Shown here: positions 1-48,583 of the stretch, piece after piece
How the letters are laid out: each line of letters opens with the position of its first letter
Numbering within the stretch: the first letter of the stretch is position 1
Assembly: GCA_017432075.1 (NCBI GenBank)
Contig: JAFRJV010000134.1
Span: 13,173-77,172 of the forward strand
Reading direction: 5' to 3'
Length of the DNA: 64,000 nucleotides
Source of the DNA: Mogibacterium sp.
GTDB taxonomy: Bacteria; Bacillota; Clostridia; Peptostreptococcales; Anaerovoracaceae
Made by a program: the position numbers and the translations under genes
Notes under the pieces: model-generated
Seen by the model: only the letters and a program-made list of their open reading frames with translations
What the model was told of the DNA's origin: nothing
The model's database searches: none

Positions 1-168
1 TATTATCATAGTTTTGCCGGGCTTGTCGGAACGTACTCAGGCGATAGGGACGAAGGAGTAGAAGAGTCTGAAATGAGTTCTGTCGTCAGGCAGGTATACC
101 GGGAGAATAAAGATGTGATAGACAGCGCATTTGCACAGGCGCTGGAGATGCAGGATACTTTGTACTGA
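1..168 (+). CDS. 3' end of an unidentified CDS (partial, runs off the window start)
   Basis: Frame 1 is open from base 1 to TGA at 166-168 (...AFAQALEMQDTLY*). No family recognised. Confidence 0.3.
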   Translation, partial: YYHSFAGLVGTYSGDRDEGVEESEMSSVVRQVYRENKDVIDSAFAQALEMQDTLY

Positions 169-219
169 AATGCATTTGGTATTCAGTGAATAGCAGCTGC
201 AGCTGATTGGAGGAAAGAA

Positions 220-1290
220 ATGGAAAACAGCAGAGCTTTAGATAAGATAAGAGGCTGTCTCGCCGGAGGGGCTATGGGTGATGCGCTCGGATATCCGGTC
301 GAGTTTGACAGGCTCCGCAAGATACGCAAAGAATACGGCAAAAGTGGCATAACTGAGTATACGCTTGATTTTGCGACAGGAGCTGCTGTCGTTTCTGACG
401 ATACACAGATGACTCTGTTCACTGCTGAAGGCATTATTGCTGCTAAAAAAAGAGGAGTAACAGAACCGGCGGACAAAAGGCTGTATCCGTATGTGCACAG
501 CGCATATCTGAACTGGTATGTAACGCAGGGACGGAAGCCGGTGAAAATGCCGGTGAAGGATATGCCTAACAGCAGGCTCATGGATATCCCGGACCTTTAT
601 ATAACGAGAGCGCCGGGAATAACCTGTCTTAATGCACTGGGAGATCCTAAAAAGCGCGATCTGTATAAGCCGATCAACAACAGCAAGGGCTGCGGAGGTG
701 TCATGAGAGTGGCTCCGGCAGGGATCCTTTATCCTGAAGCAACGCTCGAAAATGTCGTAGAGATGGGAGCTGAGATATCTGCCATCACTCACGGTCATCC
801 TCTCGGCTGTTTCCCTTCCGGAATATTTGCTGCAATAGTTCATCAGGCAGTATGGAACGATGAAAAAAAGCCTCTTGCCGTGATGATAAAGAACGCAGTG
901 GATGCAGCCCGCAATCTGTATGGAAAGAGCGATCTGTGGGAGGATCTTGAGGCTCTTGTCGACAACGCGGTAAGTCGTGCCGGTAATGAGAAATCTGATG
1001 AGGTCAACATAAAAGGACTGGGAGAAGGCTGGGTGGCTGAAGAGGCTCTTGCAATAGCCGTATATTGTGCCCTCAGATATGAGAATGACTTTTCAGCCGG
1101 TATAATAGCATCTGTCAATCACGATGGCGACAGCGACTCGACAGGGGCAATAGCAGGTAATATCCTGGGAGCACTGTGCGGATACGACATGATAGATGAG
1201 AAGTGGAAGAGAAATCTACAGTTTGATAAACTGATTGCTTTTTTCTCTAAACAGTGTTTAGAAGCATCGACGCTTGCGGCACCTTTGTAG
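220..1290 (+). CDS. ADP-ribosylglycohydrolase family protein
   Basis: 356-aa ORF with GGAGG upstream. N-terminus DKIRGCLAGGAMGDALGYPVEF and C-terminal NHDGDSDSTGAIAGNILGA are typical ARH/DraG-family metal-site motifs. Confidence 0.85.
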   Translation: MENSRALDKIRGCLAGGAMGDALGYPVEFDRLRKIRKEYGKSGITEYTLDFATGAAVVSDDTQMTLFTAEGIIAAKKRGVTEPADKRLYPYVHSAYLNWYVTQGRKPVKMPVKDMPNSRLMDIPDLYITRAPGITCLNALGDPKKRDLYKPINNSKGCGGVMRVAPAGILYPEATLENVVEMGAEISAITHGHPLGCFPSGIFAAIVHQAVWNDEKKPLAVMIKNAVDAARNLYGKSDLWEDLEALVDNAVSRAGNEKSDEVNIKGLGEGWVAEEALAIAVYCALRYENDFSAGIIASVNHDGDSDSTGAIAGNILGALCGYDMIDEKWKRNLQFDKLIAFFSKQCLEASTLAAPL

Positions 1291-1374
1291 CGCGTGTTAT
1301 AATGCCTTGGGCATTTGTTATGGGCAGCACGGGATCCTACAGTCCCGCGCTGCTATTTACGAAAGAAAACAAAA

Positions 1375-1980
1375 ATGAAGAAATCGACTATAGCTATAAT
1401 AGGAGCTTTGATCATTGCCGTATGCGCCGGCGGAGCATATCATGCACATCAGGTCAAGATCAAGGCAATGCAGGACGAAGGCGTTACACAACTTATGGCG
1501 TCCGTAGATACCGGCCTTTACAGGGAGGCTGAGCAGAAAGAGATAGAGAAGATCCTCAAAAGCACTGAGGATTCGATCCGCAAGTCAAAAGACCAGACTG
1601 AGATAGATACACTGGTCGCGGATGCTTCGGCCAAGTTCAATGTCATGAAGACAGACACGGAGTATACAAAGGAAGAAGGGGTCGCCAAGCTGAAGGAGTC
1701 CATAGATCCGGAGCTCTACAGAGAGGCTGAAAAGAAAGAGATAAAGAAGATACTCAAGAGCACAGAAAAAGCGATAGGAGAGACCAAAAACCAGGCTGAG
1801 ATCGACGCGCTGATCAAAAAGGCCTCCGCTCAGTTTGCAGAGCTCAAAACTGATGCAGAGTATACGGCAGAGGAAGAAGCCGCAGCGGCGGCAGCAGCTG
1901 CTGCTGCAAAGAAGAGCAGTAAGAAAAAATCTTCAGGCAGCAAAGGCTGTGTAGGAACAGGTTCTGATGTCTTCAATTGA
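1375..1980 (+). CDS. Membrane-anchored protein with two tandem ~66-aa helical repeats and a poly-Ala/Lys-Ser tail
   Basis: Start moved to MKKSTIAIIGALIIAVCAGG (signal/anchor). The internal repeat LYREAE(Q/K)KEI(E/K)KILKSTE...QxEID(T/A)L...A(K/Q)F...KTD(T/A)EYT occurs twice. Confidence 0.55.
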   Translation: MKKSTIAIIGALIIAVCAGGAYHAHQVKIKAMQDEGVTQLMASVDTGLYREAEQKEIEKILKSTEDSIRKSKDQTEIDTLVADASAKFNVMKTDTEYTKEEGVAKLKESIDPELYREAEKKEIKKILKSTEKAIGETKNQAEIDALIKKASAQFAELKTDAEYTAEEEAAAAAAAAAAKKSSKKKSSGSKGCVGTGSDVFN

Positions 1981-3022
1981 TATAACGGATAACACAAATA
2001 CAGAGCAAAACAAAGGTTTGAGAGACTCTAAGGAAAGGGTCTCTCAATTCTCGTATATAAAGACAGCTGCATGCTTCGCGATAGTCCTTCTGCATTGTTT
2101 CAACAACGCCAGGGTCTATCACATGGAAGGGCTGACTGACGGTCAGATAACGACAGCGTTTGCGGCATGCGCATCACTGATGTGGGCAGTACCGTGCTTC
2201 CTGATGGTTACAGGAGCGCTGCTCCTCGACAGGGACCGCGTTATTCCGCTATCCAAGCTATTTGGTAAATACATAAAGCGTATGCTCATCGCGCTGGTGG
2301 TTTTCACGGCAATATTTACTGTGATAAGACACGATCCTGCTGCCGGCACAAGTATTGCAAGCGAGTTTGCAGAGGGCCTTTTCCTCAATCACTGTATGGC
2401 CTATCTGTGGTACCTTTACATGATGCTTGCGATCTATCTGCTGATGCCGCTCATCAAGGCGATAGTCAACAGGCTGACAGACAGGCAGCTCGGCATACTG
2501 GCCGCAGTGCTGCTGCTCATATGCTCCATATTGCCGCTCGCTTCATATCTCGGTGTCGATGCGGCGCTGTACATCCCAACGTGGATCGTATACGGAGTAT
2601 ATCTGATTATAGGTTTTCTGCTTTACAGGCATAACATGGACTGGCGCATCGCAGCTGTTTTGCTGGTGATATGTACCATCACACTGCCGCTTATAACAGT
2701 AAAACTTGCGCCGACGGAGATCGATGCATCGGGCCTGACGGCTTATAACTCACCGCTCGTAGTTATGCAGTCGGCTGCGGTATTCTCGCTGATGCTGAGG
2801 ATAAAGAACAAGGCAGGCAGGCTCATAGAAAACATAGACAGATGCTCATTCGGCATCTATCTCATCCACATGATATTCATAAGGCTCACAATGAAAGAGC
2901 TGGGATTCGATCCGTTTGACTACGGTTTTGCGGGATTCATTATTACAGCTGTTGTGTTCTTCGCGGCATCTTTCGCGATCACTTACGGGCTGAAAAAATT
3001 CAGATTATTCAGCTTTCTTTAG
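1967..3022 (+). CDS. Acyltransferase family 3 (O-acyltransferase-like) integral membrane protein
   Basis: 351-aa polytopic ORF. The N-terminal FSYIKTAACFAIVLLHCF pattern and about 10 hydrophobic segments are typical of acyltransferase_3. It overlaps the upstream gene by 14 nt. Confidence 0.7.
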   Translation: MSSIDITDNTNTEQNKGLRDSKERVSQFSYIKTAACFAIVLLHCFNNARVYHMEGLTDGQITTAFAACASLMWAVPCFLMVTGALLLDRDRVIPLSKLFGKYIKRMLIALVVFTAIFTVIRHDPAAGTSIASEFAEGLFLNHCMAYLWYLYMMLAIYLLMPLIKAIVNRLTDRQLGILAAVLLLICSILPLASYLGVDAALYIPTWIVYGVYLIIGFLLYRHNMDWRIAAVLLVICTITLPLITVKLAPTEIDASGLTAYNSPLVVMQSAAVFSLMLRIKNKAGRLIENIDRCSFGIYLIHMIFIRLTMKELGFDPFDYGFAGFIITAVVFFAASFAITYGLKKFRLFSFL

Positions 3023-3039
3023 TAAAAGGAGATATATAC

Positions 3040-4224
3040 ATGAAGAGAAAATTAGCTATTCTTATCGCTGTGGCAATGATGTTTACATCGATGCCATTCT
3101 ACGCATTCGCGGACGATGGTGCGCCTGCGGACGGAAATGAGCAGCCGGAAATTACCGTGGAAGAAAACGAGGTTACGGAGGTTACGGAAAACAGCGAACC
3201 GGCACTCTCTGCAGAAGAGAACAATGGCGAAGAGAGTTCAGTTACTGAAGAGCCGGGAACAGACGAGCCTCAGCCTGAAGATCCGGAACCGCAGATCATC
3301 ACGGGATGGAATGCGGATCATACCGCATACTACGAAGAGAACGGCAAACCTCTTACTTCTACAGTCAGGTCGATCGACGGCGTTCTCTGCTATTTCAATG
3401 CCAATGGTCTGTACGACACATCAAATGGCTGGAAGACCGTTGCGGATGGAACATACTATTATATAAAGAGCGGCAAGATAGTTACGGCTCCGACTGTGGT
3501 CAAGGGATCAAAGAAGGTCAAATACTACTACAATAAAAAGAAAAAGAAATGGCAGACAAAAAAGATCAAAAAAGCCAGGACCAAGATGAAGACAGTCGAA
3601 ACCAATTACATGTACATGTTCCTCAGTGACGGAAAGCTCAAAACGACTGCAGGCATCTACAAGCTCAATGGCAAGGAGTACTATGGACTGGGATCCGGCG
3701 CGATCAAGACCGGCTGGGCAGCCATCGTTGAAAAGAAAAAAGGCAAGGCCGTATATTTCAGCACGAAAAACGGCGCGATGGTAAAGAATGCAAAGGTAGG
3801 ATATATCAAGATCCCAAGCAGCGGCAGACTCGGAGAAGCGTACTATCGCGGCGTAAAGCGCCTTGACAAGATAGGATGGTCGCTGAAAAAGGCATACAGA
3901 TGGTCAGCAAGAATGAAGTATCAGGGAAGATCGTACCGCGCAAGGAACTCCGAGACCTACGCGATCAAGGGCTTCAAGAAAGGACGCGGAAACTGCTACT
4001 GCATGGCTGCCACTTTCTACATCATGGCAAAGCTGCTTGGCTACGATGTGCACCAGGTAGAGGGCAGGGTGGATCTGCCGCATTCGTGGACCGTCATCAG
4101 ACAGGATGGCAGAGAATGGGTATATGATCCGAACTTCACCAATGAAACAGGACGCAACGGCTGGAAGATCTCATATGGCCAGAAGGGCACATGGAGATAC
4201 AACCACTATCACAAAATGAACTAG
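3040..4224 (+). CDS. Secreted protein with cell-wall-binding-type repeats and a C-terminal transglutaminase-like Cys-His-Asp domain
   Basis: Signal peptide MKRKLAILIAVAMMFTSMPFYAFA and an acidic linker. GW/YY-rich repeats (GWNADHTAYYEENGK, GWKTVADGTYYY, GWAAIV). C-terminal GNCYCMAATFY...LPHSWTVI...WVYDPN. Confidence 0.6.
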   Translation: MKRKLAILIAVAMMFTSMPFYAFADDGAPADGNEQPEITVEENEVTEVTENSEPALSAEENNGEESSVTEEPGTDEPQPEDPEPQIITGWNADHTAYYEENGKPLTSTVRSIDGVLCYFNANGLYDTSNGWKTVADGTYYYIKSGKIVTAPTVVKGSKKVKYYYNKKKKKWQTKKIKKARTKMKTVETNYMYMFLSDGKLKTTAGIYKLNGKEYYGLGSGAIKTGWAAIVEKKKGKAVYFSTKNGAMVKNAKVGYIKIPSSGRLGEAYYRGVKRLDKIGWSLKKAYRWSARMKYQGRSYRARNSETYAIKGFKKGRGNCYCMAATFYIMAKLLGYDVHQVEGRVDLPHSWTVIRQDGREWVYDPNFTNETGRNGWKISYGQKGTWRYNHYHKMN

Positions 4225-4253
4225 TAAAATAATCAAGCCACAAGGGGGCATGG

Positions 4254-7200
4254 TCAGTCTTCACCGACAACGGCCATGCCCTCAGTTATTATGTCATCCA
4301 GCTTGCGGTAAGGCGTACGCCCGTATTTTTTATCTCCGACGAAAGAGGAATCGCCCAGTATCAGGGAATCCGAAGCCTCGTTGTAATTCAGGAAAAACTT
4401 TATTTTGTTTCGCAGCGACCAGTCCGTGCTGTCCAGAATAAAAGCATGATCATTCCAACTGAGCAATAATTCGCCGGAAGATACTTTCTCGCATGATGAT
4501 TTGAAGTAGACTCCCTGACCAATCTGATCAAGTCCGGTAACGCGTCCGAAATCGGTGGAGGCAATTTCTTTTCCTTTAGAGGAATCCATGACATGCATTC
4601 TGAACATTAATGGCTCCGGTTCCTCTGCTGTGAGAATGAAACCGTCTTCGGTCATGCACATCGATTGAATATTGTACGGAATGTCATCCGCCGACCACTT
4701 TAGCTTTCCGTTAAAATCATATGCGCTTATGACATTGCTGCTGTCTTTGATGATGAGAAGCTTGCGCCCGGCATCAATGATCATATTGTTATCATTCATA
4801 CTGAAATCATCTTCCGGAGAGAATTCCTTTACAGGCATTAATGAATAATTTCCTGCCGCAATATCCAGAGTTATGATCTCAAGGGAGTGCTTTTCCACCC
4901 ATTCGTTTGTGTCAGGATCCAGATAGGATGTTTTACGTTCCACAGGGCAGTATAAAAGCCCTCCTTTTTCGTCGCAGACGACCGGCTCGCCATCAGCGTC
5001 ATTAAACTGAAAGTATTCACTGAGGAAAAGATCTTTATTCACGTTGCCTTCAGTCGAATTCTCTGAAGACACAAGTTTTATGAATTCCGTATCGCCGCTG
5101 GCTGCATCGACTGTAATGACCGGGACGGAATCACCTGCATATATTTCGATAAAATAGGCTTTGCCTGTTTCTTCTTTAAATCCTGCGTAGGATGCAAAAG
5201 CCCAGTCGCTTTCAGTACCGGGTGAAGAGAGCTCTTTATCATAGACGACCTCTCCATTCTCTGCTTTTCTGCTTATGATACGCGCCGCAGTATTGTCATT
5301 GCTCGAACCTGTTACCTCAATAAAGCAGTCTCCTGATGAAAAGAATCCATACGCGTAGGCATCCTCTTCATAGGAAATATCCTGTTCAAACGGCTGCCAC
5401 CTGGAGTCGATCCCGTTGACTTCGTATTTCGTCAGTGAATGCTTGTCACTCTCCCTGCTCCCGCCGGTGATCATATAGAGCCCGTGCATGTCATGACTGG
5501 CATTATTCCGGCGAGCTATAATGTTATCAGCGAACACATTGTGAGAAACCCTGTTCCTCTTCGTCTCAGGCACATAGACAGCTTCATTGCCGTTTTTCAG
5601 GATGGCCCAGATCTGTCCGCTGCCATCAGTAGTATATCCGCGGGCAACTATCGGAGACTGATATTCTATTTCGTCTATAATGTCTCCATCCTTGCTGATC
5701 CTTGTCATGTTGCTGCCTGTAGTGCAGAAGATATCCTCCTCATTGACCGGCGGTGCAGGCTGATCATATGCTGGGTCAAATGTCGGCATCCCGCAGTAGT
5801 AACCGCTGTAATCCTTGTTCCATATCTCCTCCAGAGTCGGTGACGCAAAACAGGATACGAACAGGCTGCGATAAGCATAATCTGTGAATGTATAAGTATA
5901 ATCTACGCCGAGACTGATGTAATCACTGTGTATTACCTTTGCATAATCGTATGTATCAGGACGCTCATTGCAGCCGCAGATAATGATCTTGTCCTTGCCG
6001 AAGAAACGTACGTCAGATATACATGCCTTGATTGCTTTCTGCATTTTGCCTGTTTCTGTATCAATCAGTTCAAGCTGATCTTCAGTAAGGTTGTTTATCT
6101 CATGGACATATGCCAGATACTTTCCATCAGGTGATATAGCCAGGCATTCCGGAAGATCTTCTCCGGTATGGATGTCTTTCACTATTTTTCCTTTTTCAAT
6201 ATCTATCCGGATCAGACAGTAGTCATTTTCATAATTGGCAAACGCAATGGCCCACAGGGTGTTTCCGTTACGGCAATATTTATCCCGCATGCTGGCTTCG
6301 GCATCCGGCATTGATGGAATGCTCACGTCAAGCCGGTATTTCTCTTTGCCTGACGGCACATCCAGAGCAAAAATACTCTTGTTGGAGATAAGGAGAAGAG
6401 AGCCGTCATCTGAGACTTCCAGAGCAATGATTTCATGGCCCGCTTTGTACAAACCATCCGTATAATCGGTCAGCAATGCATCTCCGCTGTCTGCATCCCA
6501 TATCCGCACACGGCCTCCCGCAAGCCGTCCTGCTGCATATTCATGGCCGCCCGCGGAAAACGGGATGGCATCATAGCAGCTGAAGTCTGAAGTGTACTGC
6601 CTTACGGCATTCCACTTGTGCTCCAGCGATGAATGATAGAGATTAAGGGCTTCTGAAATGGCAAGAACAGCTTCCGAGACGACTGGTCTGTCCTGATCCT
6701 TTGACGGAAGAGCCTGGAGCGCATAACGTATGGCGCCGATACGGTCTCCACGTTCGAGAGCCTCTTCAGACTGGGTGGCAAGGTTCAGAGATTCCTCGCG
6801 CAGGCTCTTGTTATAATTTGTCCGTATCTGCTGGTTGCTCCATATCAGGTAACCTACGGCAGAAGTAAGGAGAACAGCCGCAGATGCCAGAAGAGCTATC
6901 ATCCTTCTCATTCTGTAATGCTTCTGCCTCTGCACGAGTTCGTCATAGCGGCATCCCATGATCGCGGCTATGAGTCTCGGCAGCTCTTCTCTGTCAGCTT
7001 TGCGGACAGGAAGCCTGTAATCACAGGAGAGGGGCTCTCTCATATTTCTGACAGTGTTGCCGTTCTCATCGACTATATCCTCATAAAGGATTTCCTCAGG
7101 AAGGACATCGAATGGTTCACCTTCCGTGATAACAGTAAGTATCTGATCGATAGTGTGGTTCTTAAGAAAGAACTCGATCTCGCGATGCACCCAGATGGAT

Positions 7201-7454
7201 TCCTTGCTTTCCGGTGAACAGATAACAATGAGATAATCGGAATTTTCAAGGGCGTCCTCGATTATCGTGTTCAGATCCCCGGATACTTCAAGTTCGCCCT
7301 TGTCGAGGAAGACCCGCTTTATGCTATCCTTACCGGAATGAGTCTCGACTCCCTTAGGAAGTTTGAAGCTTTCCAGCTTGCGCTGAAGTTCGCGCGTGAT
7401 CTTGTTGTCTCTGGGATTGTGGTTGTAAGAAATAAAAGCATCATAATGGTACAT
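4254..7454 (-). CDS. TIR domain / single TM helix / large beta-propeller (WD40-like) protein
   Basis: 1066-aa ORF with AGGAG 8 nt upstream of the ATG. N-terminal DAFISYNHNPRD...SIWVHREIEFF is TIR-like. One hydrophobic helix, MIALLASAAVLLTSAVGYLIW, spans aa ~185-205. About 860 aa of repeat-like beta-rich sequence follows (e.g. GRVRIWDADSG). Confidence 0.8.
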   Translation of the reverse strand: MYHYDAFISYNHNPRDNKITRELQRKLESFKLPKGVETHSGKDSIKRVFLDKGELEVSGDLNTIIEDALENSDYLIVICSPESKESIWVHREIEFFLKNHTIDQILTVITEGEPFDVLPEEILYEDIVDENGNTVRNMREPLSCDYRLPVRKADREELPRLIAAIMGCRYDELVQRQKHYRMRRMIALLASAAVLLTSAVGYLIWSNQQIRTNYNKSLREESLNLATQSEEALERGDRIGAIRYALQALPSKDQDRPVVSEAVLAISEALNLYHSSLEHKWNAVRQYTSDFSCYDAIPFSAGGHEYAAGRLAGGRVRIWDADSGDALLTDYTDGLYKAGHEIIALEVSDDGSLLLISNKSIFALDVPSGKEKYRLDVSIPSMPDAEASMRDKYCRNGNTLWAIAFANYENDYCLIRIDIEKGKIVKDIHTGEDLPECLAISPDGKYLAYVHEINNLTEDQLELIDTETGKMQKAIKACISDVRFFGKDKIIICGCNERPDTYDYAKVIHSDYISLGVDYTYTFTDYAYRSLFVSCFASPTLEEIWNKDYSGYYCGMPTFDPAYDQPAPPVNEEDIFCTTGSNMTRISKDGDIIDEIEYQSPIVARGYTTDGSGQIWAILKNGNEAVYVPETKRNRVSHNVFADNIIARRNNASHDMHGLYMITGGSRESDKHSLTKYEVNGIDSRWQPFEQDISYEEDAYAYGFFSSGDCFIEVTGSSNDNTAARIISRKAENGEVVYDKELSSPGTESDWAFASYAGFKEETGKAYFIEIYAGDSVPVITVDAASGDTEFIKLVSSENSTEGNVNKDLFLSEYFQFNDADGEPVVCDEKGGLLYCPVERKTSYLDPDTNEWVEKHSLEIITLDIAAGNYSLMPVKEFSPEDDFSMNDNNMIIDAGRKLLIIKDSSNVISAYDFNGKLKWSADDIPYNIQSMCMTEDGFILTAEEPEPLMFRMHVMDSSKGKEIASTDFGRVTGLDQIGQGVYFKSSCEKVSSGELLLSWNDHAFILDSTDWSLRNKIKFFLNYNEASDSLILGDSSFVGDKKYGRTPYRKLDDIITEGMAVVGED

Positions 7455-7593
7455 GGATCGCGCTCCTGTTTATCCGGATATTATCTTATGTAGACAATTA
7501 TAACAGAGCGGGTGCTCAAAAGACCCGTACAAATGCCTAAAAACGAGTGTTTGCAGGATTTGGAGTCAAAATAAAATAATCCTGAAAAAGGTG

Positions 7594-7622
7594 TTGCTTT
7601 TGTACCACTGATTGCATAAAAT
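7594..7622 (+). promoter_or_regulatory. Sigma-A-type promoter of the rpsF-ssb-rpsR operon
   Basis: TTGCTT (7594-7599), a 17-nt spacer, then TAAAAT (7617-7622), about 90 nt upstream of rpsF. Confidence 0.5.
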
Positions 7623-7628
7623 ATATGG

Positions 7629-7685
7629 GCGCGTCGTGGACGGCGCGTTCATTACTTATTACTTCTGCGCAGGGCAAACCTGCGC
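7629..7685 (+). promoter_or_regulatory. Structured rpsF 5' leader (two GC-rich hairpins), candidate S6:S18 autoregulatory element
   Basis: Hairpin 7629-7648 has a UGGA tetraloop. Hairpin GCGCAGG-gcaaa-CCTGCGC lies at 7667-7685, just before the RBS AGGAGG. Confidence 0.3.
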
Positions 7686-7709
7686 CAAAAGACCACAGGA
7701 GGTGTCAAC

Positions 7710-7997
7710 ATGAGAGATTATGAACTTCTATTCGTGCTTGATCCAAGCCTGGACGAAGAAGCCAAGGCAAACCTCGTTGAGACAGTAAAGTCTGTTATCA
7801 ACGCTGGTGGCGAGGCCGGTGAAGCTGATGTTTGGGGAGACAGAAGACTCGCTTACAGCATCAACAAGAAGAACACAGGATACTATGTAGTTATCCCGTT
7901 CAAGGCCGAAGCAGACCTGCCGAAGGAACTCGACAGAAGACTCAGGATCAACGAAAACGTAATGAGACATATCATCGTTTGCCAGGACGAAGAGTAA
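7710..7997 (+). CDS. rpsF: 30S ribosomal protein S6
   Basis: 95 aa, MRDYELLFVLDPSLDEE...RRLAY, with canonical S6 sequence and rpsF-ssb-rpsR synteny. Confidence 0.95.
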   Translation: MRDYELLFVLDPSLDEEAKANLVETVKSVINAGGEAGEADVWGDRRLAYSINKKNTGYYVVIPFKAEADLPKELDRRLRINENVMRHIIVCQDEE

Positions 7998-8016
7998 TCA
8001 GAAGGGAAGGTAAGTT

Positions 8017-8493
8017 ATGAACAGTGTAATACTAATCGGAAGACTTGCCAGAGACCCGGAACTCAGCTATACGCCTAATACCCAGTCTGCTGTATGCCGT
8101 TTCACTATCGCGGTTGACAGACCAAGAAGACAGGGAGAAGATCAGGGCGCTGACTTCATCAGAATCACAGTATGGGGAAGACAGGCTGAGACTTGCGACC
8201 GCTACCTCAGCAAGGGCAGACAGGTTGCCGTCATGGGTAGGATCCAGACCGGAAGCTACAAGAACAGAGAAGGTGTCACAGTCTATACGACAGACGTCGT
8301 AGCCGACAGAGTAGAATTCCTCGGCAGCGGCAATGGTGGACAGGGCGTAAGCCGCGATACGTTCACCGGCAGAGAGCCGAGCTTCGGCGGTATGACACAG
8401 GACACCGGCTTCAGCGCTCCACAGGAATCGTTCAGCGGTTTCGATGACATGCCGGACACATTCCAGGCAGCTGAAGATGATATTCCATTCTAA
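8017..8493 (+). CDS. ssb: Single-stranded DNA-binding protein
   Basis: [22 protein letters not shown]-fold N-terminus, Gly-rich linker and acidic C-terminal tip DDIPF. Confidence 0.95.
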
Positions 8494-8513
8494 GAAAGGG
8501 GAAAGCACGAATC

Positions 8514-8765
8514 ATGGAAAGAAATTCAAGACCTAAGCGCATGAATACAGGCATCAGAAGACGTAAAGTCTGCCAGTTCTGTGCTGATCAGGACAAGAAG
8601 ATCGACTACAAGGATGCAGAGACTCTTAAGAAGTACATCACAGAGAGAGGTAAGATCCTCCCTAGAAGAGTCACGGGCACATGCGCAATGCACCAGAGAG
8701 CAGTTGCGAAGGCTATCAAGAGAGCCAGAGTAGTCGCGATACTGCCATTTGACGCAGATCAGTAA
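8514..8765 (+). CDS. rpsR: 30S ribosomal protein S18
   Basis: 83 aa with KVCQFC...IDYKD...[18 protein letters not shown], a canonical S18. Confidence 0.95.
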
Positions 8766-8775
8766 AAACAAAACA

Positions 8776-8810
8776 GGGAGCCGGCCCGTGAAGGACCGGC
8801 TCTCTTTGTC
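8776..8810 (+). terminator. Rho-independent terminator after rpsR
   Basis: GAGCCGG / CCGGCTC stem (extendable) followed by a TCTTT run. Confidence 0.55.
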
Positions 8811-8826
8811 ATTGGGACATTTGGGA

Positions 8827-10353
8827 ATGCCGGACAATAATAACGAGAGAAAAATAAAGAGAGCCGAAAAGAGGGTACCGGGACCTAAAAAGATACACAG
8901 GATGAGCAAACAGGCGCTGCACCGGTGGATCAGGTTCTTTTCGATTGCCTCTGTTTTGCTTGCTGCGGCCTTTACGCTGGCGGTAATAATGGCATTCAAC
9001 CATTACAAGACTTATCCGGGAAAGGTCGAAAGGGACTCGTTGAGCTCACCGGGCAGGGGTTCCGACTTCATAGTTGTCAGCTGGGATGAGACTCACAGTA
9101 CCGATGTGTATAAGGTGTGGGTCAAGGAGCGTGCCCTTGTCAGGGAAGATATGGAAAAGGCCGAAAAAGAGGACGGGCAGGATGAAAACGCTCCGATCAC
9201 TCCCGATGGCAGCTGGCAGGAGTATGAGACGACCGTTCCCGAGATCACAGTCAAGGACCTGAAGGATGATACTTCGTATTCTTTCATCATCAGGGCAGAC
9301 AACGAGAAAAAGGAAGGGACGGCAACTCAGCCGAGAAGCTTCAAAACCAAGAAGACCCAGAAAATAAAGGTAAATAAAAAGATCACAAAGTTTACTTTTA
9401 GCAAGCCGTTTAAACTGGGATCCGCGCAGACCGATCTTATTTACGAGTCGAGTGATCCTGAAGTTGCAACGGTCAATCCGGAAACCAACGAGATCGAGAT
9501 CACCGGTGAAGGTGATGCGGAGATCAGGATCAGTGCAAAATCAACCCTGGAATTCGATGGAACAAGTAAGGTCGTAGAGCTGAAGGTCATCGATTCGACA
9601 CCTGTAAGTGCCGGAGGCGCCTCTCCGAATATCATTTACCATCTGGATTCAGATAACTGCGAGGTGGTAAAAAGGATCACCGGTGCCGACGGAGCGGTCG
9701 TGCCGCAGGGGCTGGGCTATTCCGGAGATAAGTACATCGTTTCATATGGAATGGGAAGCCCTAACCGTATCATCAGCTTTGATGTCGATGGAGACGGCAA
9801 GAAAGTAAGCGTGCCTACCATTTCCATGGGCCATCCGAACGGATTCACGTATGCAGACGAGAACGGACGCTGCTACTGCGTCAAGGGGTGGACATCAAAG
9901 GTCTACACCTATGAACCGACCTCAGATACCTACGGGACAGTCAACCTGTCGTACGGATGCTCGGGCATAGGCTATGACAGAAAGGAAAAACTTCTCTACA
10001 CGTGCTCGCGTACAGCGATGGTCGCATATGATATCAGCGACGGTTACAGCGTGAAATACAGGTGCGGTGTGGTCAGTCACGGCGGAAACGTGTACACTCA
10101 GGACTGCGGCGGCCATGCAGGTATCATGTTCAGATGCCTGTCGGGCAGCAATAAGCACGGCACTAACTATATCGACCTTTACGATATGAAGAAAGGCAGA
10201 TATCTGGGGACGTTCTCCTGCGACCTTTCAGAGGTCGAGAGCTGCATAGTCGATGACGACGGTTTTCTCGAGATACTGGCCAACAACTCAAGCAACGAGG
10301 ACTACATCTGGAAGACAGATCTTAATATCAACACCCTGGGTCAGGGATTATAG
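8827..10353 (+). CDS. Membrane-anchored surface protein: FN3-like and Big_2-like domains plus a conserved ~240-aa C-terminal domain of unknown function
   Basis: Start placed after the rpsR terminator (MPDNNN; an alternative ATG is at 8902). TM segment FFSIASVLLAAAFTLAVIMAF. FN3-like FIVVSWDE...YSFIIRA. Big_2-like YESSDPEVATVNPETNEIEITGEGDAEI. The C-terminal domain is shared with 11409-12767. Confidence 0.6.
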   Translation: MPDNNNERKIKRAEKRVPGPKKIHRMSKQALHRWIRFFSIASVLLAAAFTLAVIMAFNHYKTYPGKVERDSLSSPGRGSDFIVVSWDETHSTDVYKVWVKERALVREDMEKAEKEDGQDENAPITPDGSWQEYETTVPEITVKDLKDDTSYSFIIRADNEKKEGTATQPRSFKTKKTQKIKVNKKITKFTFSKPFKLGSAQTDLIYESSDPEVATVNPETNEIEITGEGDAEIRISAKSTLEFDGTSKVVELKVIDSTPVSAGGASPNIIYHLDSDNCEVVKRITGADGAVVPQGLGYSGDKYIVSYGMGSPNRIISFDVDGDGKKVSVPTISMGHPNGFTYADENGRCYCVKGWTSKVYTYEPTSDTYGTVNLSYGCSGIGYDRKEKLLYTCSRTAMVAYDISDGYSVKYRCGVVSHGGNVYTQDCGGHAGIMFRCLSGSNKHGTNYIDLYDMKKGRYLGTFSCDLSEVESCIVDDDGFLEILANNSSNEDYIWKTDLNINTLGQGL

Positions 10354-10363
10354 CACAATAAAA

Positions 10364-10399
10364 GAGCCATACAGATTTGTCTGTATGGCTCCCTTTTTT
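10364..10399. terminator. Bidirectional rho-independent terminator
   Basis: GAGCCATACAG-atttgt-CTGTATGGCTC followed by TTTTTT, between the convergent genes ending at 10353 (+) and 10401 (-). Confidence 0.75.
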
Positions 10400-10400
10400 C

Positions 10401-11327
10401 TTAACCTTTCCTGAGCTCGGCGATCTTCTGCCTTGCGGTTATGGCGAGGTAGAGGATCTCATTGGCCGGAGTCGGTATGCCGTGCTTCTTGCCGAGTCTT
10501 ACGACTTCACCGGCGTACTCGTCTATCTCTATAGGCCTGCCTGCTTCATAATCCTGAAGCATAGACATCTTCTTGTCAGGCGGGAAGTTTATGAGCATCT
10601 CGATTATCTCATCACGGTCGTCCTCTGTCAGATTGACACCTTCTGCCCACGCGATCTCGAGGATCTCATCCATCAGCATCTTCATCAGAGCTCTGACTTC
10701 CTCGACCTGTCCGAAGAATCCGCACTCTGCCTGAACTTCTACGGCTGTCTGGCTGGCGCCGGTATTGAGCATCCATTTGCGCCATTTTGCTCTGAGCATG
10801 TCATCATATATCCTGACGTTGATGCCGAGCTCCTTGAGTCTCTCGTATGCTTCGACAACTTCAGGCTCAGGGTCGCGGTTGTCGGCATATCCTATCTGCA
10901 TCTCGCCGAGAGTTCTGAAGTAGACCCTGCGGCTCATGCGGTGCGCATCTGTTCTGAGTACAACACCGTAGAAAGACCTGTTCTCAGGGAACTTTTCCCT
11001 GAGAAGTGTAGTGGTGGTGATGCCGTTCTCGATAGGGAGCAGGATGGTATCCGGATCTATGAGTGAACGGATATCTTCAATAACCGAATCCATGCTGTAA
11101 GTCTTTGCGGCAAGGATCAGAAGGTCGATGTGGATGTTCTGCGAAGGATCCGAGTAGACCTTCGGATAGAAGACTTCGTTGTTTACTGAGATTCCTTTCG
11201 TTCTGAGACGCTCGGCACGCTCACCTGTTGCGAGCAGGTAAACGTTCTCCGGATCTCTTTTATACATTTCATACATCAGTGCGCTTCCGACTGAACCGGC
11301 GCCCAGGATGCCTACTGTTTTTATCAT
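10401..11327 (-). CDS. panE: 2-dehydropantoate 2-reductase (ketopantoate reductase, ApbA/PanE family)
   Basis: Start set at MIKTVGILGAGSVGSALMY (Rossmann GxGxxG). The C-terminal PanE-like part reads SMLQDYEAGRPIEIDEYAGEVV. Confidence 0.8.
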   Translation of the reverse strand: MIKTVGILGAGSVGSALMYEMYKRDPENVYLLATGERAERLRTKGISVNNEVFYPKVYSDPSQNIHIDLLILAAKTYSMDSVIEDIRSLIDPDTILLPIENGITTTTLLREKFPENRSFYGVVLRTDAHRMSRRVYFRTLGEMQIGYADNRDPEPEVVEAYERLKELGINVRIYDDMLRAKWRKWMLNTGASQTAVEVQAECGFFGQVEEVRALMKMLMDEILEIAWAEGVNLTEDDRDEIIEMLINFPPDKKMSMLQDYEAGRPIEIDEYAGEVVRLGKKHGIPTPANEILYLAITARQKIAELRKG

Positions 11328-11408
11328 TACAGTACCTCTCTTAATAAAAATATGGTATCTGTCATAAGCATAACAGATACCATACCGCATTTTCTATACT
11401 TTAAAAAG

Positions 11409-12767
11409 TTATTTCAGTTCATTTACGTTGAGAGGAGTCTTCCAGACATAATCGGTGTTGCTGCCCATGGTATTGATGAGTATCCTCAGATATCCGTCAT
11501 TGCCGACGCAGGCACTTTCTATCTCTCCCAGAGTTACCTTTACCGAACCGAGATATGCGAAGTCTTCCGCTCTGTATATATCTATGAAGTTGGTCTTCTT
11601 TTTATTGGCGCCGCTTATGCAGTGGAAGATGAATCCGCCTCCGGCACCGCAGTCCTGAGTGTAGTGGAAAATGCCATGACTGCATCTCGGGAACAGCCTC
11701 CTGTGGGAGAAGGCTCCGTCAGCGCTGTAAGCCCTGATACCGCTGCGCGAGCTCGCGTAGATGGAATTGGTCGAATTGTCGTAGCCGGCTCCTGATGACG
11801 AGTACGGAGTTTTGGCTTTCCCGTACTTTCTTGTCGCAGGGTTCCAGGTGTATATCCTCCTGGTATTGCCTTTAAAAATGTAGCACAGTTTTGTGACAGG
11901 ATCCCAGGCGATGCCGTTAGGGTGTCCGATCCTGAATGAAAATTTGGATGCTCTCAGGCGTTTGCCGCTTGAGGAATATGTCACGATGCTCTGTCCGGCT
12001 GCCATTCCGTAAAGAATGTAGTATTCACTGCCGGTAAAAGCCATACCCTGAGGGACTTTAGCTTTTTTTGTTCCCTTTATTGAAAAGATCCTGCTGCAGT
12101 TGGAGGAATTGAACGTGCATACGACCCTTGCCTTGCCGCCTCCTGTCGGATTAGTGAGCAGAGCTTTTGCGAGGTCGGACTTTCCTTCGAGTTCCTTCGG
12201 GGTCTTCTTTATGAAGAGAGAATCACCGAGCTTAATATAATCCCCGCAAACGTATACGATCCTGCCTCCTATCAGTGTTCTGTACCAGTTCTCATTTTTA
12301 CCGGCGAATGATGCCGGCAGCTGAAGATACATCAGCGTGCCCATTGCCATGGTGCCGATTTTTTTGAAGTTCGTGGCCGGACCTGACCTGTAATTAAGAG
12401 CATCCGTGGCAACTGCGGCAGTGCTGCTGAAAGTGACGCTGTTTACGAAATCAGATCTGATATACCCGGAAACCTTGCCTGATGTTACATAATACCAGCG
12501 TGCTGTTGCTGCCAGGCTCTTTTCTGTAAAGATCTCCTTGTAGATCGTGAGCTTCGCGCCTTTCTTAAGTACAGCTACCGATGAAGCTGAGGTACTGACT
12601 GAATTTCTGAGATTGACGCCGTCATCACTTACCGTGCCGGATGCAGTTATCGCTGCAGCACTGGATGTGAATGCAGGGACGTTAAGGACCGGCAGGACAG
12701 TGAAGATCATTGCAGCCGCCAGTATGCAGGCAACTGCTTTTACTTTTAAATTGCTTTTCTTTTTCAT
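11409..12767 (-). CDS. Secreted protein: two SH3b-like domains plus the same C-terminal domain of unknown function as 8827-10353
   Basis: Start at MKKKSNLKVKAVACILAAAMIF (signal). SH3_3-like GVNLRNSVS...WYYVTSGKVSGYIRSDFV occurs twice. C-terminal motifs VPQG, GHPNG, YTQDCG, DYVWKTPLNVN are present. Confidence 0.65.
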   Translation of the reverse strand: MKKKSNLKVKAVACILAAAMIFTVLPVLNVPAFTSSAAAITASGTVSDDGVNLRNSVSTSASSVAVLKKGAKLTIYKEIFTEKSLAATARWYYVTSGKVSGYIRSDFVNSVTFSSTAAVATDALNYRSGPATNFKKIGTMAMGTLMYLQLPASFAGKNENWYRTLIGGRIVYVCGDYIKLGDSLFIKKTPKELEGKSDLAKALLTNPTGGGKARVVCTFNSSNCSRIFSIKGTKKAKVPQGMAFTGSEYYILYGMAAGQSIVTYSSSGKRLRASKFSFRIGHPNGIAWDPVTKLCYIFKGNTRRIYTWNPATRKYGKAKTPYSSSGAGYDNSTNSIYASSRSGIRAYSADGAFSHRRLFPRCSHGIFHYTQDCGAGGGFIFHCISGANKKKTNFIDIYRAEDFAYLGSVKVTLGEIESACVGNDGYLRILINTMGSNTDYVWKTPLNVNELK

Positions 12768-12987
12768 GATGCTCTCATCCTTTTTTAGATGCGAACCGAC
12801 CGGCCTGCACGTTCCTTGTGAAGCCGGTATGTGTCCATTGAAATTATAGAAAGCAGGACTCAAAGCTCTCAACAATTCTTTACAAACAAAAACCTTTATA
12901 TTTAGTAAGGCAAAAAAGCCTCAAAGCCTTGAGGTTTCGCAATTAGAACACAAAAAACGGGCTGCGAGGATATATAATATTAACGTT

Positions 12988-13440
12988 ATGAATATGTGGG
13001 ATATTATTTATACATTTACAACATGGGTAGCGAGGGTACACGAGCACGTCCTTCAGATCAATGATGCAGGCGGCTGGTACTTCGACGACAAGCAGCTGCA
13101 CTTCATCGTATTCGGACTATTCGGTATGGCTCTTATCTTTGTGCTGTACCCGCTGTTCAAATTCCTTGCAAAGCGTGATCACACAATGGTGATCACCTGG
13201 CTTTACGTGTTCACGGTGATAATAGTACTGGCTTTCGCAATAGAGGTAGGACAGTGGTACACAGGTACCGGTGTCATGGAGAGCCAGGACATCGCTTACG
13301 GCATCACCGGCTTTCTTGCCATGTTCCTTATTTTTGCCATACTGCGCGGTCTTTACCACGGCATAAAGGCGATGTTATATAAGGACAACAGAAAGACCAG
13401 AGTCTACTCAAGGGACGAACTTAACCTCGACGACAAGTAG
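12988..13440 (+). CDS. Small integral membrane protein (about 4 TM), function unknown
   Basis: 150-aa ORF with four hydrophobic segments, lying immediately upstream of purE (17-nt gap). Confidence 0.5.
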   Translation: MNMWDIIYTFTTWVARVHEHVLQINDAGGWYFDDKQLHFIVFGLFGMALIFVLYPLFKFLAKRDHTMVITWLYVFTVIIVLAFAIEVGQWYTGTGVMESQDIAYGITGFLAMFLIFAILRGLYHGIKAMLYKDNRKTRVYSRDELNLDDK

Positions 13441-13457
13441 TATAAACGGGAGGAACG

Positions 13458-13946
13458 ATGAAAAAGGTCGGACTGATCATGGGAAGCGACAGCGATCTGC
13501 CTGTAGTGCAGAAAGCAGCCGCTGTTCTTAAAGAGCTTGGGATCCCTTATGAAGCGCACGTGTATTCGGCGCACCGCACGCCTGCTGAGGCAAGATCATG
13601 GTCGCTGGCGGCAAGGGATGAAGGCTTTGGCGTCATTATAGCCTTCGCCGGCATGGCAGCTCACCTGGCAGGAGCGATCGCTGCAAACACTACGCTCCCG
13701 GTTATCGGAGTGCCATGCAGGAGCGCTGCGCTTGACGGCATGGACGCTCTTTTATCGACCGTGATGATGCCGAGCGGTATCCCGGTCGCAACTGTCGCGA
13801 TCGACGGAGGCAAAAACGCAGCGCTCCTTGCCGCCGAGATACTGGCGCTTTCAGATGAAGAACTTGCTCAGGCACTCATCGCGCGCCGCGAAGCAGAGTC
13901 GGAGGCGGTTCTCAAAAAGGACCGGGGAATCGCGGACCGCATTTAA
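13458..13946 (+). CDS. purE: N5-carboxyaminoimidazole ribonucleotide mutase (class I PurE-like)
   Basis: [14 protein letters not shown] and AGMAAHLAG motifs; 162 aa. Confidence 0.9.
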
Positions 13947-14077
13947 TTTTTGATAAAAGGGAGTCTTTAAAATGCAGCGGCCGGAGACTCCGCTGCGTAT
14001 AGCCGCGGCGAGGCGCGAGCCGTGCTCCGGACGATGGATTTTAAAGGCACATGTTATAAGTATTAAGGAGGACTAAG

Positions 14078-14758: not shown

Positions 14759-14776
14759 ACCGAAAGGACAGGTGAC

Positions 14777-48530: not shown

Positions 48531-48562
48531 CAACCTCTGAAAAGGGGTTGATTATTTTTTTT
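48531..48562 (+). terminator. Terminator-like hairpin between the SBP gene and uvrB
   Basis: CAACCTC-tgaaaa-GGGGTTG, then ATTA and a T8 run. Confidence 0.4.
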
Positions 48563-48583
48563 AAACAAAAGATAATGTGCACC

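Follow-up and report, generated by a model that had tools for sequence, protein, structure and literature searches.

A putative TIR-transmembrane-propeller receptor of Mogibacterium sp. and its family in gut and rumen Clostridia

Introduction

To our knowledge, the cue to which the TIR domain responds is intracellular in all bacterial TIR systems that are mechanistically understood. Proteins of the AbTir, BtTir, ThsB, TIR-STING, SPARTA and SARM1 type are cytosolic and have intracellular triggers, namely cyclic nucleotides, guide/target nucleic acid, the NMN/NAD ratio or phage proteins. A gene in a 64-kb stretch of DNA from a rumen Mogibacterium sp., here called the window, raises the question whether a TIR domain can be coupled across the membrane to a sensor outside the cell. 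This would be the first bacterial case of Toll-like receptor logic, with the ancestral enzymatic motif retained. A preliminary description of the sequence had proposed such a layout and regarded the gene as an unusual single-gene sensing or abortive module. Here, the domains, topology, relatives and genomic context of the protein are analyzed.

Results and Discussion

Gene and locus

The gene begins with an ATG according to the open reading frame list and translation. Its product is 100% identical to a database entry annotated 'TIR domain-containing protein [Mogibacterium sp.]', and the AlphaFold2 model of the whole protein has a pLDDT of 88.3 and a pTM of 0.76. The following features were assigned:

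4254..7454, minus strand: complete gene, 1066 aa (ORF translation), with TIR domain, juxtamembrane module, TM helix, stalk, two beta-propellers and C-terminal helix
7455..7520, minus strand: upstream region with AGGAG ribosome-binding site (7463-7467) and TGTTATAAT extended -10-like motif (7497-7505), read directly off the sequence
7065..7454, minus strand: TIR domain core, aa 1-130 (Pfam TIR_2 and ThsB_TIR, TIR-only model, fold matches)
7179..7181, minus strand: codon of E92, predicted catalytic glutamate in the motif W88-V-H-R-E92 (alignment and invariance)
6903..7064, minus strand: predicted cytoplasmic juxtamembrane module, aa 131-184, a beta-hairpin plus helices with the motifs EPLSCDYR, ELPRL and GCxYDxLVQRQ (conservation and model)
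6837..6902, minus strand: single TM helix, aa ~185-206 (hydropathy, charge bias, model)
6630..6836, minus strand: predicted extracytoplasmic helical stalk, aa 207-275, with conserved LATQSEEALERGDRIGAIRYALQALP motif (conservation and model)
4311..6629, minus strand: two WD40/PQQ-like beta-propellers, aa 276-1048, about 15 blades, predicted extracellular sensor (model and Foldseek)
4257..4310, minus strand: C-terminal helix, aa 1049-1066, consensus PYRxLxELI (PYRKLDDII at residues 1048-1056 of the window protein)
3040-4224, plus strand: transglutaminase-core/choline-binding-repeat protein gene, convergent with the TIR gene
7710-8765, plus strand: rpsF-ssb-rpsR, divergent from the TIR gene

The ribosome-binding site lies 8 nt 5' of the start. 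The consensus scan listed no two-hexamer promoter on the minus strand at 7455..7520; the TGTTATAAT motif may serve as the promoter. An Rfam scan of window positions 1-15000 gave no match. The position between a cell-wall-binding hydrolase-like gene and the rpsF operon is as reported before. The surrounding locus is of housekeeping character, comprising the rpsF operon, purine synthesis and, further along, uvrAB, and on its flanks are genes whose products belong to the cell surface or wall: choline-binding/transglutaminase, SH3_3, CHAP and LRR/Ig proteins and a Big_2 receptor kinase. An ADP-ribosylglycohydrolase gene is located 3 kb from the TIR gene. Neither paralogues elsewhere in the 64 kb nor a second TIR-containing partner gene near the TIR gene were found in the window.

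The TIR domain and its catalytic motif

The protein was described as starting with a TIR-type domain and lacking a signal peptide, and both statements hold: no hydrophobic signal sequence is present at the N-terminus, and Pfam TIR_2 (PF13676) matches aa 7-129 with E=7.3e-11 and 43.1 bits (cut-off 28). The ThsB_TIR model reaches 31.8 bits (cut-off 21.2; E=2e-7), and the whole domain extends over residues 1 to ~166. When the TIR-only structure model (pLDDT 87) was compared with the PDB by Foldseek, the best 50 matches were all TIR domains, including those of MyD88, SPARTA TIR-APAZ, RPP1, SARM1 and AbTir, in agreement with a flavodoxin-like TIR fold. The highest TM-scores were obtained for MyD88 TIR filaments (TMt 0.75-0.78), and SARM1 was among the matches of highest sequence identity (23-24%). 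A profile-against-PDB search returned TIR domains in 23 of 24 matches.

The preliminary description left the choice of the catalytic residue between Glu92 and Glu94. E92 aligns with E86 of Roq1 (W82...E86) and with the 'WTEYE' of BtTir (7uxr); E86 is the catalytic glutamate of Roq1 (bioRxiv 10.1101/2020.08.13.246413). Both W88 and E92 are invariant in 238 of 238 relatives, as are S9, Y10, D16, F49 and D51, whereas position 94 is variable and holds a glutamate in 179. E92, and not E94, is the predicted equivalent of the catalytic glutamate in the W-x-x-x-E motif of alpha-C. With the TIR_2 and ThsB_TIR profiles, the fold and the aligned invariant Glu and Trp, the domain resembles the NAD+-cleaving TIRs named above and is probably NAD-cleaving itself. 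Conserved catalytic residues do not, however, prove NADase activity, as some glutamate-bearing TIRs are poor enzymes.

Membrane topology and comparison with other sensor architectures

The TIR domain is followed by the family-specific juxtamembrane module, which shows the highest mean conservation of the protein (0.71) and in which E140, P141, D145, R147, E157, R160, Y170 and R176 vary little or not at all. The best 19-aa hydrophobic window (aa 186-204, KD hydropathy 2.18) coincides with the one hydrophobic helix noted before at aa ~185-205. In the model it is part of one continuous helix (aa 170-234), and two shorter helices (238-248 and 260-269) follow before the propellers. The hydrophobic segment is kept in 218 of 223 full-length relatives. 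In these 218 proteins its N-side flank carries on average 5.5 Lys and Arg residues versus 2.4 on the C-side, and the net positive charge is greater on the N-side in 188. By the positive-inside rule and hydropathy, the TIR domain would be cytoplasmic and the propellers would lie outside, and the protein is predicted to be a type II (N-in) single-pass membrane receptor. The flanking charges fit the topology proposed before. The layout should not be called an inverted Toll-like receptor, since sensor-out and TIR-in is the same as in these receptors and the reversal concerns only the domain order along the chain.

The stalk (mean conservation 0.61) has invariant residues at L249, P250 and P257. 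Its motif recurs in TIR-TM-WD40 proteins of Methylorubrum, in line with the previously noted resemblance to the helical linker that precedes WD40 arrays. The claim that no NTPase module separates TIR and repeats was likewise borne out: Pfam and NCBIfam searches of the protein gave no NTPase match, Walker A and B motifs are absent, and the model shows the TM helix and stalk between TIR and propellers. The protein thus shares the C-terminal tandem WD40-type propellers and a similar helical cap before the repeats with TIR-STAND (NACHT/NB-ARC)-WD40/TPR and Apaf-1-like sensors, and the N-terminal TIR effector with the STAND proteins, but lacks their NTPase switch. A TM helix takes its place, which would put sensor and effector in different compartments.

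In layout, the protein resembles the receptor Ser/Thr kinases of Gram-positive bacteria, of which PknD of M. tuberculosis is a kinase-TM-NHL beta-propeller protein and PknB a kinase-TM-PASTA protein. These are likewise N-in, with a cytoplasmic catalytic domain, a juxtamembrane segment, one TM helix and extracellular repeats or a propeller; the output domain of the window protein is a TIR instead of a kinase. A similar architecture is seen in proteobacterial TIR-TM-WD40 and TIR-TM-TPR proteins, such as WP_041929394 and WP_012606285 on pCMU01 of Methylorubrum extorquens CM4 and WP_345774920 of Sinorhizobium. Over aa ~1-185/272, their TIR and juxtamembrane module are 30-36% identical to those of the window protein. 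They also have one TM helix and the stalk motif described above, and they are likewise uncharacterised. They differ in their canonical WD40 (as in the Methylorubrum pair) or TPR repeats, their megaplasmid locations and the Gram-negative periplasm, and no DHH partner (see below) is annotated in the stretches shown.

The predicted propeller ectodomain and sequence conservation in the family

The roughly 800 aa of propeller-like repeats described before were recovered in the AlphaFold2 model as 60 beta-strands between aa 281 and 1048, forming two propellers. Foldseek against the PDB matched them to tandem double WD40 propellers (Utp21, EML-type MAPs, Apaf-1) over ~800 aligned columns with E-values of 1e-16 to 6e-20, and sequence profiles gave weak matches to the THOC3 propeller and PQQ_ABC repeats. 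The extracytoplasmic part (aa 207-1066) has a net charge of -63. The C-terminal helix is modeled at 1052-1063 (conservation 0.43) and is preceded by a nearly invariant G1045. A weak Pfam match to a phage receptor-binding propeller (E=0.006) was not corroborated. The fold search against viral proteins yielded generic propellers and one protein of Tetraselmis virus 1 annotated 'TIR/WD40', with low TM-scores.

The protein is not the one-off that the preliminary description suggested, but one member of a very large family in gut and rumen Clostridia whose architecture is homogeneous. A profile built from TIR and juxtamembrane module matched 2,680 clusters at 50% identity (E<=1e-30). The proteins are nearly always ~1,000-1,100 aa long, and almost all of the best matches have 1,000-1,120 aa. 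At least 559 family loci were located in species genomes, mostly from rumen Lachnospiraceae, Butyrivibrio, Eubacterium and Mogibacterium. In a full-length alignment with 69 relatives, the window protein possesses all family traits: the TIR domain, the EPLSCDYR/ELPRL/YDDLVQRQ module, one TM helix, the ALP stalk and ~800 aa of propellers. The cytoplasmic parts showed a conservation of 0.67-0.71 versus 0.28-0.31 for the propellers, where only G422, G590 and G622 are invariant. This pattern of conserved cytoplasmic parts and variable propellers suggests a sensor-like evolution.

It also bears on the possibility that the propellers are a surface enzyme, an adhesin or a cell-wall scaffold of BamB/PQQ-like or lectin type, perhaps acting on rumen plant polysaccharide or cell wall, with the TIR domain in a secondary, regulatory or anchoring role. 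The abundance of the family in fibre-degrading rumen Clostridia, the surface protein genes around the window locus and the PQQ-type profile matches would agree with such a function. However, the near absence of invariant residues in the propellers argues against a conserved catalytic site, and the strong conservation of TIR and juxtamembrane module fits an output module, not an accessory. We consider this explanation improbable.

The rpsF-adjacent position is common only to strains of the same species and one relative of 49% identity, and with its nearest relatives at the species level (loci L001-L003) the window showed no conserved synteny. One relative harbors tandem paralogues at the same rpsF-adjacent locus, whose divergence (37% identity) also fits a sensor-like evolution. 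The Pkinase gene beside this pair was examined as a receptor kinase with the same ectodomain and rejected, as it did not match the family HMM.

A DHH-DHHA1 phosphoesterase as recurrent partner

No partner gene had been seen before, which stands for the window but not for the family. In the main Lachnospiraceae/Eubacterium clade the TIR gene is tightly paired with the gene of a conserved DHH-DHHA1 phosphoesterase. The pairing was seen at 34 of 60 loci with enough flanking sequence; most DHH pairs are convergent (28), and fewer are co-transcribed (11). Look-ups from the DHH side recovered the pair in three of three cases, with overlapping stop and start codons and with differing, unrelated genes around it. 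Among its top matches the DHH protein shows 65-73% identity, and PADLOC gave no match to it. This enzyme is a concrete candidate for handling the TIR product. In the 64-kb window, tblastn with three DHH partners gave no match, and average-linkage clustering placed the window with the DHH-less L001-L003. The link is clade-specific and may thus say little about the window gene. A Macro-domain gene is located directly upstream in L001 and near the TIR gene in another relative (L049). Together with the ADP-ribosylglycohydrolase gene of the window, this is a weak hint at ADP-ribose chemistry, close to anecdotal at 3 of 81 loci.

As in animal TLR/MyD88 signaling, the TIR domain could be a non-enzymatic assembly or adaptor domain. 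An external ligand would then nucleate a cytoplasmic scaffold that acts on another protein by recruitment or regulation, such as, in Lachnospiraceae, the DHH phosphoesterase, and NAD+ would not be cleaved. The top-scoring fold matches to MyD88 filaments would be in accordance with this, the conserved juxtamembrane module could serve as docking surface, and the DHH protein, itself an enzyme, could be the regulated output. Yet W88 and E92 are invariant throughout the family although adaptor TIRs do not need them, the window holds no further TIR-containing partner gene nearby, and its clade has no DHH partner to recruit. An adaptor function therefore appears unlikely.

Defence context

Partial matches to defence proteins are found for the TIR domain. 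The top ones in PADLOC and NCBIfam are ThsB, the type III Thoeris protein ThcB4 and retron-TIR, but the PADLOC models of ThsB cover no more than aa 3-98 or 7-122 (E 1e-5 to 7e-3), and no PADLOC model matches the full-length protein, which differs from ThsB as a 1066-aa membrane protein. The PADLOC matches listed for the 52 window ORFs scanned include mad3 and mad8 but no model of ThsA, the SIR2/Macro-SLOG or TM effector of Thoeris; a STING or Ago/APAZ partner, as known from other NAD+-cleaving TIRs, is also lacking. The 110 nearest non-DHH neighbours of homologues are heterogeneous in Pfam content and comprise one Cas9 and scattered generic matches, so that an informal count in this small sample shows no defence-island enrichment. 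A search of the phage collection gave no match, and the only plasmid copy resides on a chromid-like, non-mobilizable 243-kb Butyrivibrio replicon. The identical protein (100%) occurs on 22 contigs from different samples.

These data bear on the idea of a single-gene abortive-infection sensor against phages or predators. Its propellers, exposed at the surface, would respond to adsorbing phage, to a receptor-binding protein or to damage of the envelope, and TIR oligomerisation would collapse NAD+ and kill or arrest the cell before the phage cycle is completed; if so, phages could be sensed before genome entry. The best-known bacterial TIRs with this catalytic motif are those of Thoeris, TIR-STING and SPARTA, and the ectodomain varies strongly between species and paralogues, as expected of a target-recognition surface. 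The protein is moreover self-contained, combining sensor and effector, and for such a single-gene system the scarcity of defence genes among the nearest neighbours is compatible with a defence role. The context nevertheless lends no support to the defence module suggested earlier: the locus is a housekeeping one, ThsA and phage copies were not found, the plasmid copy is chromid-like, identity on 22 contigs indicates no strain-level hypervariability, and the enzyme that often accompanies the gene is very conserved and of housekeeping type. A role in abortive infection is accordingly rated as rather unlikely.

Proposed function

The chromosomal, housekeeping-adjacent context, the missing defence islands, the identical protein across samples and the DHH pairing favor physiological sensing over a mobile abortive-infection module. 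Our preferred, though still tentative, explanation is a TIR NADase or signal generator that spans the membrane and is activated by a ligand, as part of a pathway that senses the envelope or the environment. The propellers would bind an extracellular or cell-surface ligand, which would change how the long TM/stalk helices pack or oligomerise and thereby bring the cytoplasmic TIRs into head-to-tail assemblies. Known TIR enzymes need such assemblies to form their composite active site. The assembled TIR would then cleave NAD+, leading either to its depletion or, more likely, to an ADPR-type nucleotide signal. Where present, the DHH enzyme may be the signal-turnover or output enzyme, whereas the window gene would act without it. 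Beyond the TIR fold and the conserved glutamate, we infer all of these steps. In contrast to the cytosolic NAD+-cleaving TIRs, the only plausible sensor of this protein would lie across the membrane.

A bolder version, which we regard as possible but doubtful, is that gut and rumen Clostridia possess a new second-messenger pathway across the membrane, in which the protein family is the analogue of Toll-like receptors. The pathway would run from ligand via propeller and TIR to an NAD-derived nucleotide which, in most lineages, the co-inherited DHH-DHHA1 protein degrades or is controlled by. This would extend TIR signaling beyond intracellular anti-phage suicide to routine sensing of the outside world. 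With animal Toll-like and IL-1 receptors the window protein would share, judging by its charge bias, the single-pass arrangement, with a sensor built of repeats outside the cell and the TIR in the cytoplasm, and its TIR fold matches structures of TLR1, TLR2, TLR10 and MyD88. Differences are the N-terminal TIR in a type II protein, as opposed to LRR ectodomain, TM helix and C-terminal TIR in Toll-like receptors, and a double beta-propeller in place of LRR or Ig domains. The window TIR also keeps the enzyme-type WxxxE glutamate whereas TLR TIRs signal as scaffolds, and no adaptor TIR gene is located near the window gene.

In the full-text literature, with most subscription journals outside the coverage, neither a bacterial TIR-TM-propeller protein nor a TIR-DHH pair was found described. 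With thousands of clusters at 50% identity, the family is large, and it is concentrated in rumen fibre degraders of agricultural importance. Its carriers include cultured strains of the Hungate collection (Butyrivibrio sp. INlla14, INlla18 and NC2007; Lachnospiraceae NK4A179 and P6B14), which makes the family experimentally testable.

Gene and genomic locus

The TIR-propeller protein is encoded by the sole long ORF at its position in the window. The gene is preceded, at a distance of 8 nt, by an AGGAG ribosome-binding site of its own, and an extended -10-like motif (TGTTATAAT) was read by eye from the sequence upstream of it. The genes of the locus are arranged as follows.

Genes at the TIR-propeller locus
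4254-7454, minus strand: TIR-propeller ORF, 1066 aa
7710-8765, plus strand: rpsF-ssb-rpsR, divergent from the TIR-propeller gene
Plus strand, convergent with the TIR-propeller gene: four-gene block of ADP-ribosylglycohydrolase, unknown ORF, acyltransferase_3 and a transglutaminase-core/choline-binding-repeat protein
220-1290, plus strand: ADP-ribosylglycohydrolase, heading this block 3 kb from the TIR-propeller gene
3040-4224, plus strand: transglutaminase-core/choline-binding-repeat protein of the block

Public databases hold a 100%-identical protein labelled 'TIR domain-containing protein [Mogibacterium sp.]'. As 22 contigs from several samples carry this identical protein beside unchanged neighbours, the gene is real and stable within the species. 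On the same contig past the left end of the window, beyond the ADP-ribosylglycohydrolase block (locus L081, 17287-23201), there are genes for an HTH regulator, a CHAP-domain protein of 993 aa, a Ser/Thr kinase of 551 aa that gives faint Big_2/Ig-like matches, and an LRR/Ig protein. Thus, the TIR gene flanks a group of genes for surface and cell-wall proteins. Directly 3' of rpsR lies an ORF of 534 aa starting with TTG (8749-10353, plus strand), which shows only sub-threshold fn3 and SGL/propeller-like matches; related strains and a 49%-identity relative (loci L081, L083 and L086) harbor a counterpart of about 510-520 aa without a Pfam match at this position. In the rpsF 5' region, a 12-bp GC-rich stem-loop with seven G-C pairs (7625-7652, plus strand) about 60 nt ahead of the rpsF start may be a leader element of the rpsF operon; no Rfam family matched within positions 1-15000 of the window.

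Domain architecture and structure model

The preliminary description had proposed a TIR-type domain followed by propeller-like repeats without an intervening NTPase, and this order is confirmed. Pfam places TIR_2 at aa 7-129 (43.1 bits, cut-off 28) and additionally matches ThsB_TIR, and the best 50 matches of a separate model of the N-terminal 182 aa (pLDDT 87) were all TIR domains, including MyD88, SPARTA TIR-APAZ, RPP1, SARM1, AbTir and TLRs. Profile searches yielded no NTPase match for the protein, and a motif check found neither Walker A nor Walker B. An AlphaFold2 model of the full protein, built on 70 homologues, is confident (pLDDT 88.3, pTM 0.76). It comprises a TIR-like alpha/beta domain with a beta-hairpin and helices reaching aa ~166, an unbroken single helix at aa 170-234 that encloses the hydrophobic stretch 185-206, two more helices, 60 beta-strands within aa 281-1048 and a last helix at 1052-1063. 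Propeller profiles match only weakly. In Foldseek searches against the PDB, about 800 columns align with the tandem double WD40 propellers of Utp21, EML-type proteins, Apaf-1 and COPI, with E-values down to 6e-20. Based on this alignment and the 60-strand model, the repeats, whose number had been left to structure prediction, are modelled as a pair of propellers, each with about seven blades.

The catalytic-type glutamate, initially placed at aa 92 or 94, can be assigned to E92. When a profile of the N-terminal module was compared with PDB sequences, W88...E92 aligned to W82...E86 of Roq1 and to 'WTEYE' of BtTir (7uxr). E86 is the catalytic glutamate of Roq1, and its mutation abolishes function (bioRxiv 10.1101/2020.08.13.246413). 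W88 and E92 are invariant among 238 family members, as are A6, S9, Y10 and D16 of the beta-A motif and F49, D51 and L55 of the BB-loop region; E94 is kept in 179. The protein is thus a genuine member of the TIR superfamily with enzyme-type features. A TIR domain acting purely as a scaffold would fit the TIR fold as such; next to the invariant motif, we regard this as improbable.

Membrane topology

Of 223 full-length relatives, 218 share the hydrophobic segment. On average, the 15 residues before it contain 5.5 lysines or arginines vs 2.4 after it, and the net positive charge is greater on the N-side in 188 of the 218. No N-terminal signal sequence was found in the protein. According to the positive-inside rule, and given the lack of such a signal, the TIR domain is predicted to reside in the cytoplasm and the stalk (aa 207-275) and propellers outside, which agrees with the single-helix topology suggested from the first reading. 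The likeness to an inverted Toll-like receptor holds for the order along the chain, which is reversed, but not for the compartments, which would be the same as in TLRs.

Family distribution and conservation

The preliminary description supposed that the gene would be an unusual single-gene module. A protein search, however, returned more than 2,000 clusters at 90% identity, mostly of ~1,000-1,130 aa with TIR_2 and ThsB_TIR. A profile of the TIR domain and the juxtamembrane module (aa 131-184) retrieved 2,680 representatives at 50% identity (E<=1e-30); nearly all of the best 150 measure 1,000-1,120 aa, and the shorter ones among these look like fragments. Relatives are encoded at no fewer than 559 loci of species-representative genomes, chiefly those of ruminant gut Lachnospiraceae, Butyrivibrio, Eubacterium, Mogibacterium/Anaerovoracaceae, Oscillospiraceae, Mageeibacillus, Saccharofermentans and Erysipelotrichaceae, and Hungate strains in culture are among the carriers. 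Cultured carriers include Butyrivibrio sp. INlla18 and NC2007 and B. fibrisolvens D1.

Conservation is strongly uneven, with values of 0.71 for the juxtamembrane module, 0.67 for the TIR domain, 0.61 for the stalk and 0.28-0.31 for the propellers. The family combines a TIR fold whose enzyme-type motif is absolutely conserved, a conserved unit of juxtamembrane module, TM helix and stalk, and a variable double propeller beyond the helix. That the propellers serve as a surface enzyme or adhesin seems very unlikely.

Several loci contain more than one copy.

Paralogous TIR-propeller genes
L085, 165-3434 (minus) and 4650-7829 (plus): pair
L086, 5516-8785 (minus) and 10001-13180 (plus): pair
L030, 7992-11123 and 11125-14250: tandem

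In the 49%-identity relative, two copies sharing 37% identity lie on either side of a 310-aa unknown gene, next to rpsF, where the gene also lies in the window. Such paired copies suggest local duplication and subsequent sequence divergence.

Association with a DHH-DHHA1 phosphoesterase

All ORFs from 80 homologous loci and the window were clustered. Besides the TIR gene, the sole recurring family was a phosphoesterase of ~500 aa with DHH and DHHA1 domains. NrnA, Rv2837c and TmPDE are its nearest relatives of solved structure. Both the DHH motif and a GGGH-type motif are retained, and the protein carries a C-terminal extension of ~200 aa without assigned domain and has no PADLOC match. Identity across the best matches is 65-73%.

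Examples of adjoining DHH genes
L068, 6474-7976, plus strand: adjoins the TIR-TM-propeller gene
L021, 11080-12570, minus strand: adjoins the TIR-TM-propeller gene
L087, 7001-8515, plus strand: TIR gene at 8512-11571

The initial reading noted no obvious partner genes. This remains true of the window, as no DHH homologue was found anywhere in its 64 kb, but not of the family, in which the DHH gene adjoins the TIR-propeller gene at 34 of the 60 loci whose flanks are long enough. In the 40 full-length loci where a DHH gene is adjacent, it is convergent and immediately downstream in 28, on the same strand immediately upstream in 11 and on the same strand downstream in one. Searching from the DHH side, all three homologues immediately preceded a TIR-propeller gene, the DHH stop codon overlapping the start codon of the TIR gene, and the remaining neighbourhoods of these loci are unrelated to each other. 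This pairing is found chiefly in the main Lachnospiraceae/Eubacterium clade (37/52) and is absent from the clade of the window and other deep branches.

Genomic context and proposed function

A survey of homologue neighbourhoods gave no sign of the suspected defence islands. The 110 nearest non-DHH neighbours are mixed transport, signalling and metabolic genes with a single Cas9, and show no defence enrichment. The family had no phage match, and its sole near-full plasmid match was to a non-mobilizable Butyrivibrio replicon of 243 kb. Among the PADLOC matches listed for the 52 window ORFs were mad3 in two ORFs (best E 1e-96) and mad8 in two (2e-39). Part of the PADLOC matches may be housekeeping cross-matches, since two ORFs are as follows.

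UvrB and UvrA in the window
48548-50560, plus strand: UvrB
50724-53612, plus strand: UvrA

Genes for ADP-ribose processing occur near some DHH-less family members, in three of 81 loci, namely the window, L001 and L049; these are too few to serve as evidence and only suggestive of ADP-ribose chemistry. In L001, from the clade of the window, a Macro-domain gene (6909-7973, plus strand) lies directly upstream of the TIR gene on the same strand, and in L049 a Macro gene (5312-5833, plus strand) is located one gene downstream.

The TIR enzymes SARM1, plant TNLs, AbTir, ThsB and SPARTA require TIR self-association for activity. By analogy, the simplest mechanism would be that a ligand drives clustering or rearrangement of the receptor, that this change passes along the long helix, and that the TIR domain is thereby switched on to cleave NAD+. 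Abortive infection through NAD+ depletion, as defence or suicide, would draw on the same cleavage and is considered unlikely. We tentatively rank a nucleotide signal as output above such depletion, due to the housekeeping context, the identity of the protein within the species, the lack of mobile-element or defence neighbours and, in the main clade, the partnership with a highly conserved phosphoesterase.

Comparison with known systems and distant relatives

Thoeris is defined by its partner gene ThsA, which was not among the PADLOC matches listed for the 52 window ORFs. TIR-STAND proteins contain an NTPase, in contrast to the protein described here, which also has neither the LRRs nor the domain order of TLRs. 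The closest layout is that of PknD-type receptor kinases, with the kinase replaced by a TIR domain. A literature search found no published description of the TIR-TM-propeller architecture or of a TIR-DHH pair; already known are the label 'TIR domain-containing' in database records of these proteins and, at annotation level, the co-occurrence of TIR and WD40. The family deserves attention for its size, its accessibility to experiment and its mechanistic difference from known bacterial TIR systems.

Like the clostridial family, more distant relatives on proteobacterial megaplasmids combine the TIR domain and juxtamembrane module with a single TM helix and the family's stalk motif; they differ in their ectodomains.

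Proteobacterial megaplasmid relatives
L093, 1884-4832 and 4929-7850: two tandem genes with canonical WD40 ectodomain, Methylorubrum extorquens CM4 pCMU01
L094, 4551-7307: TPR ectodomain, Sinorhizobium pK101b

Receptor-like TIR layouts thus extend beyond the Clostridia. A match in BFVD was a 965-aa protein of the giant algal virus Tetraselmis virus 1 (A0A2P0VP16), annotated 'TIR/WD40 domain-containing', which aligns, with low TM-scores, across the entire model of the TIR-propeller protein.
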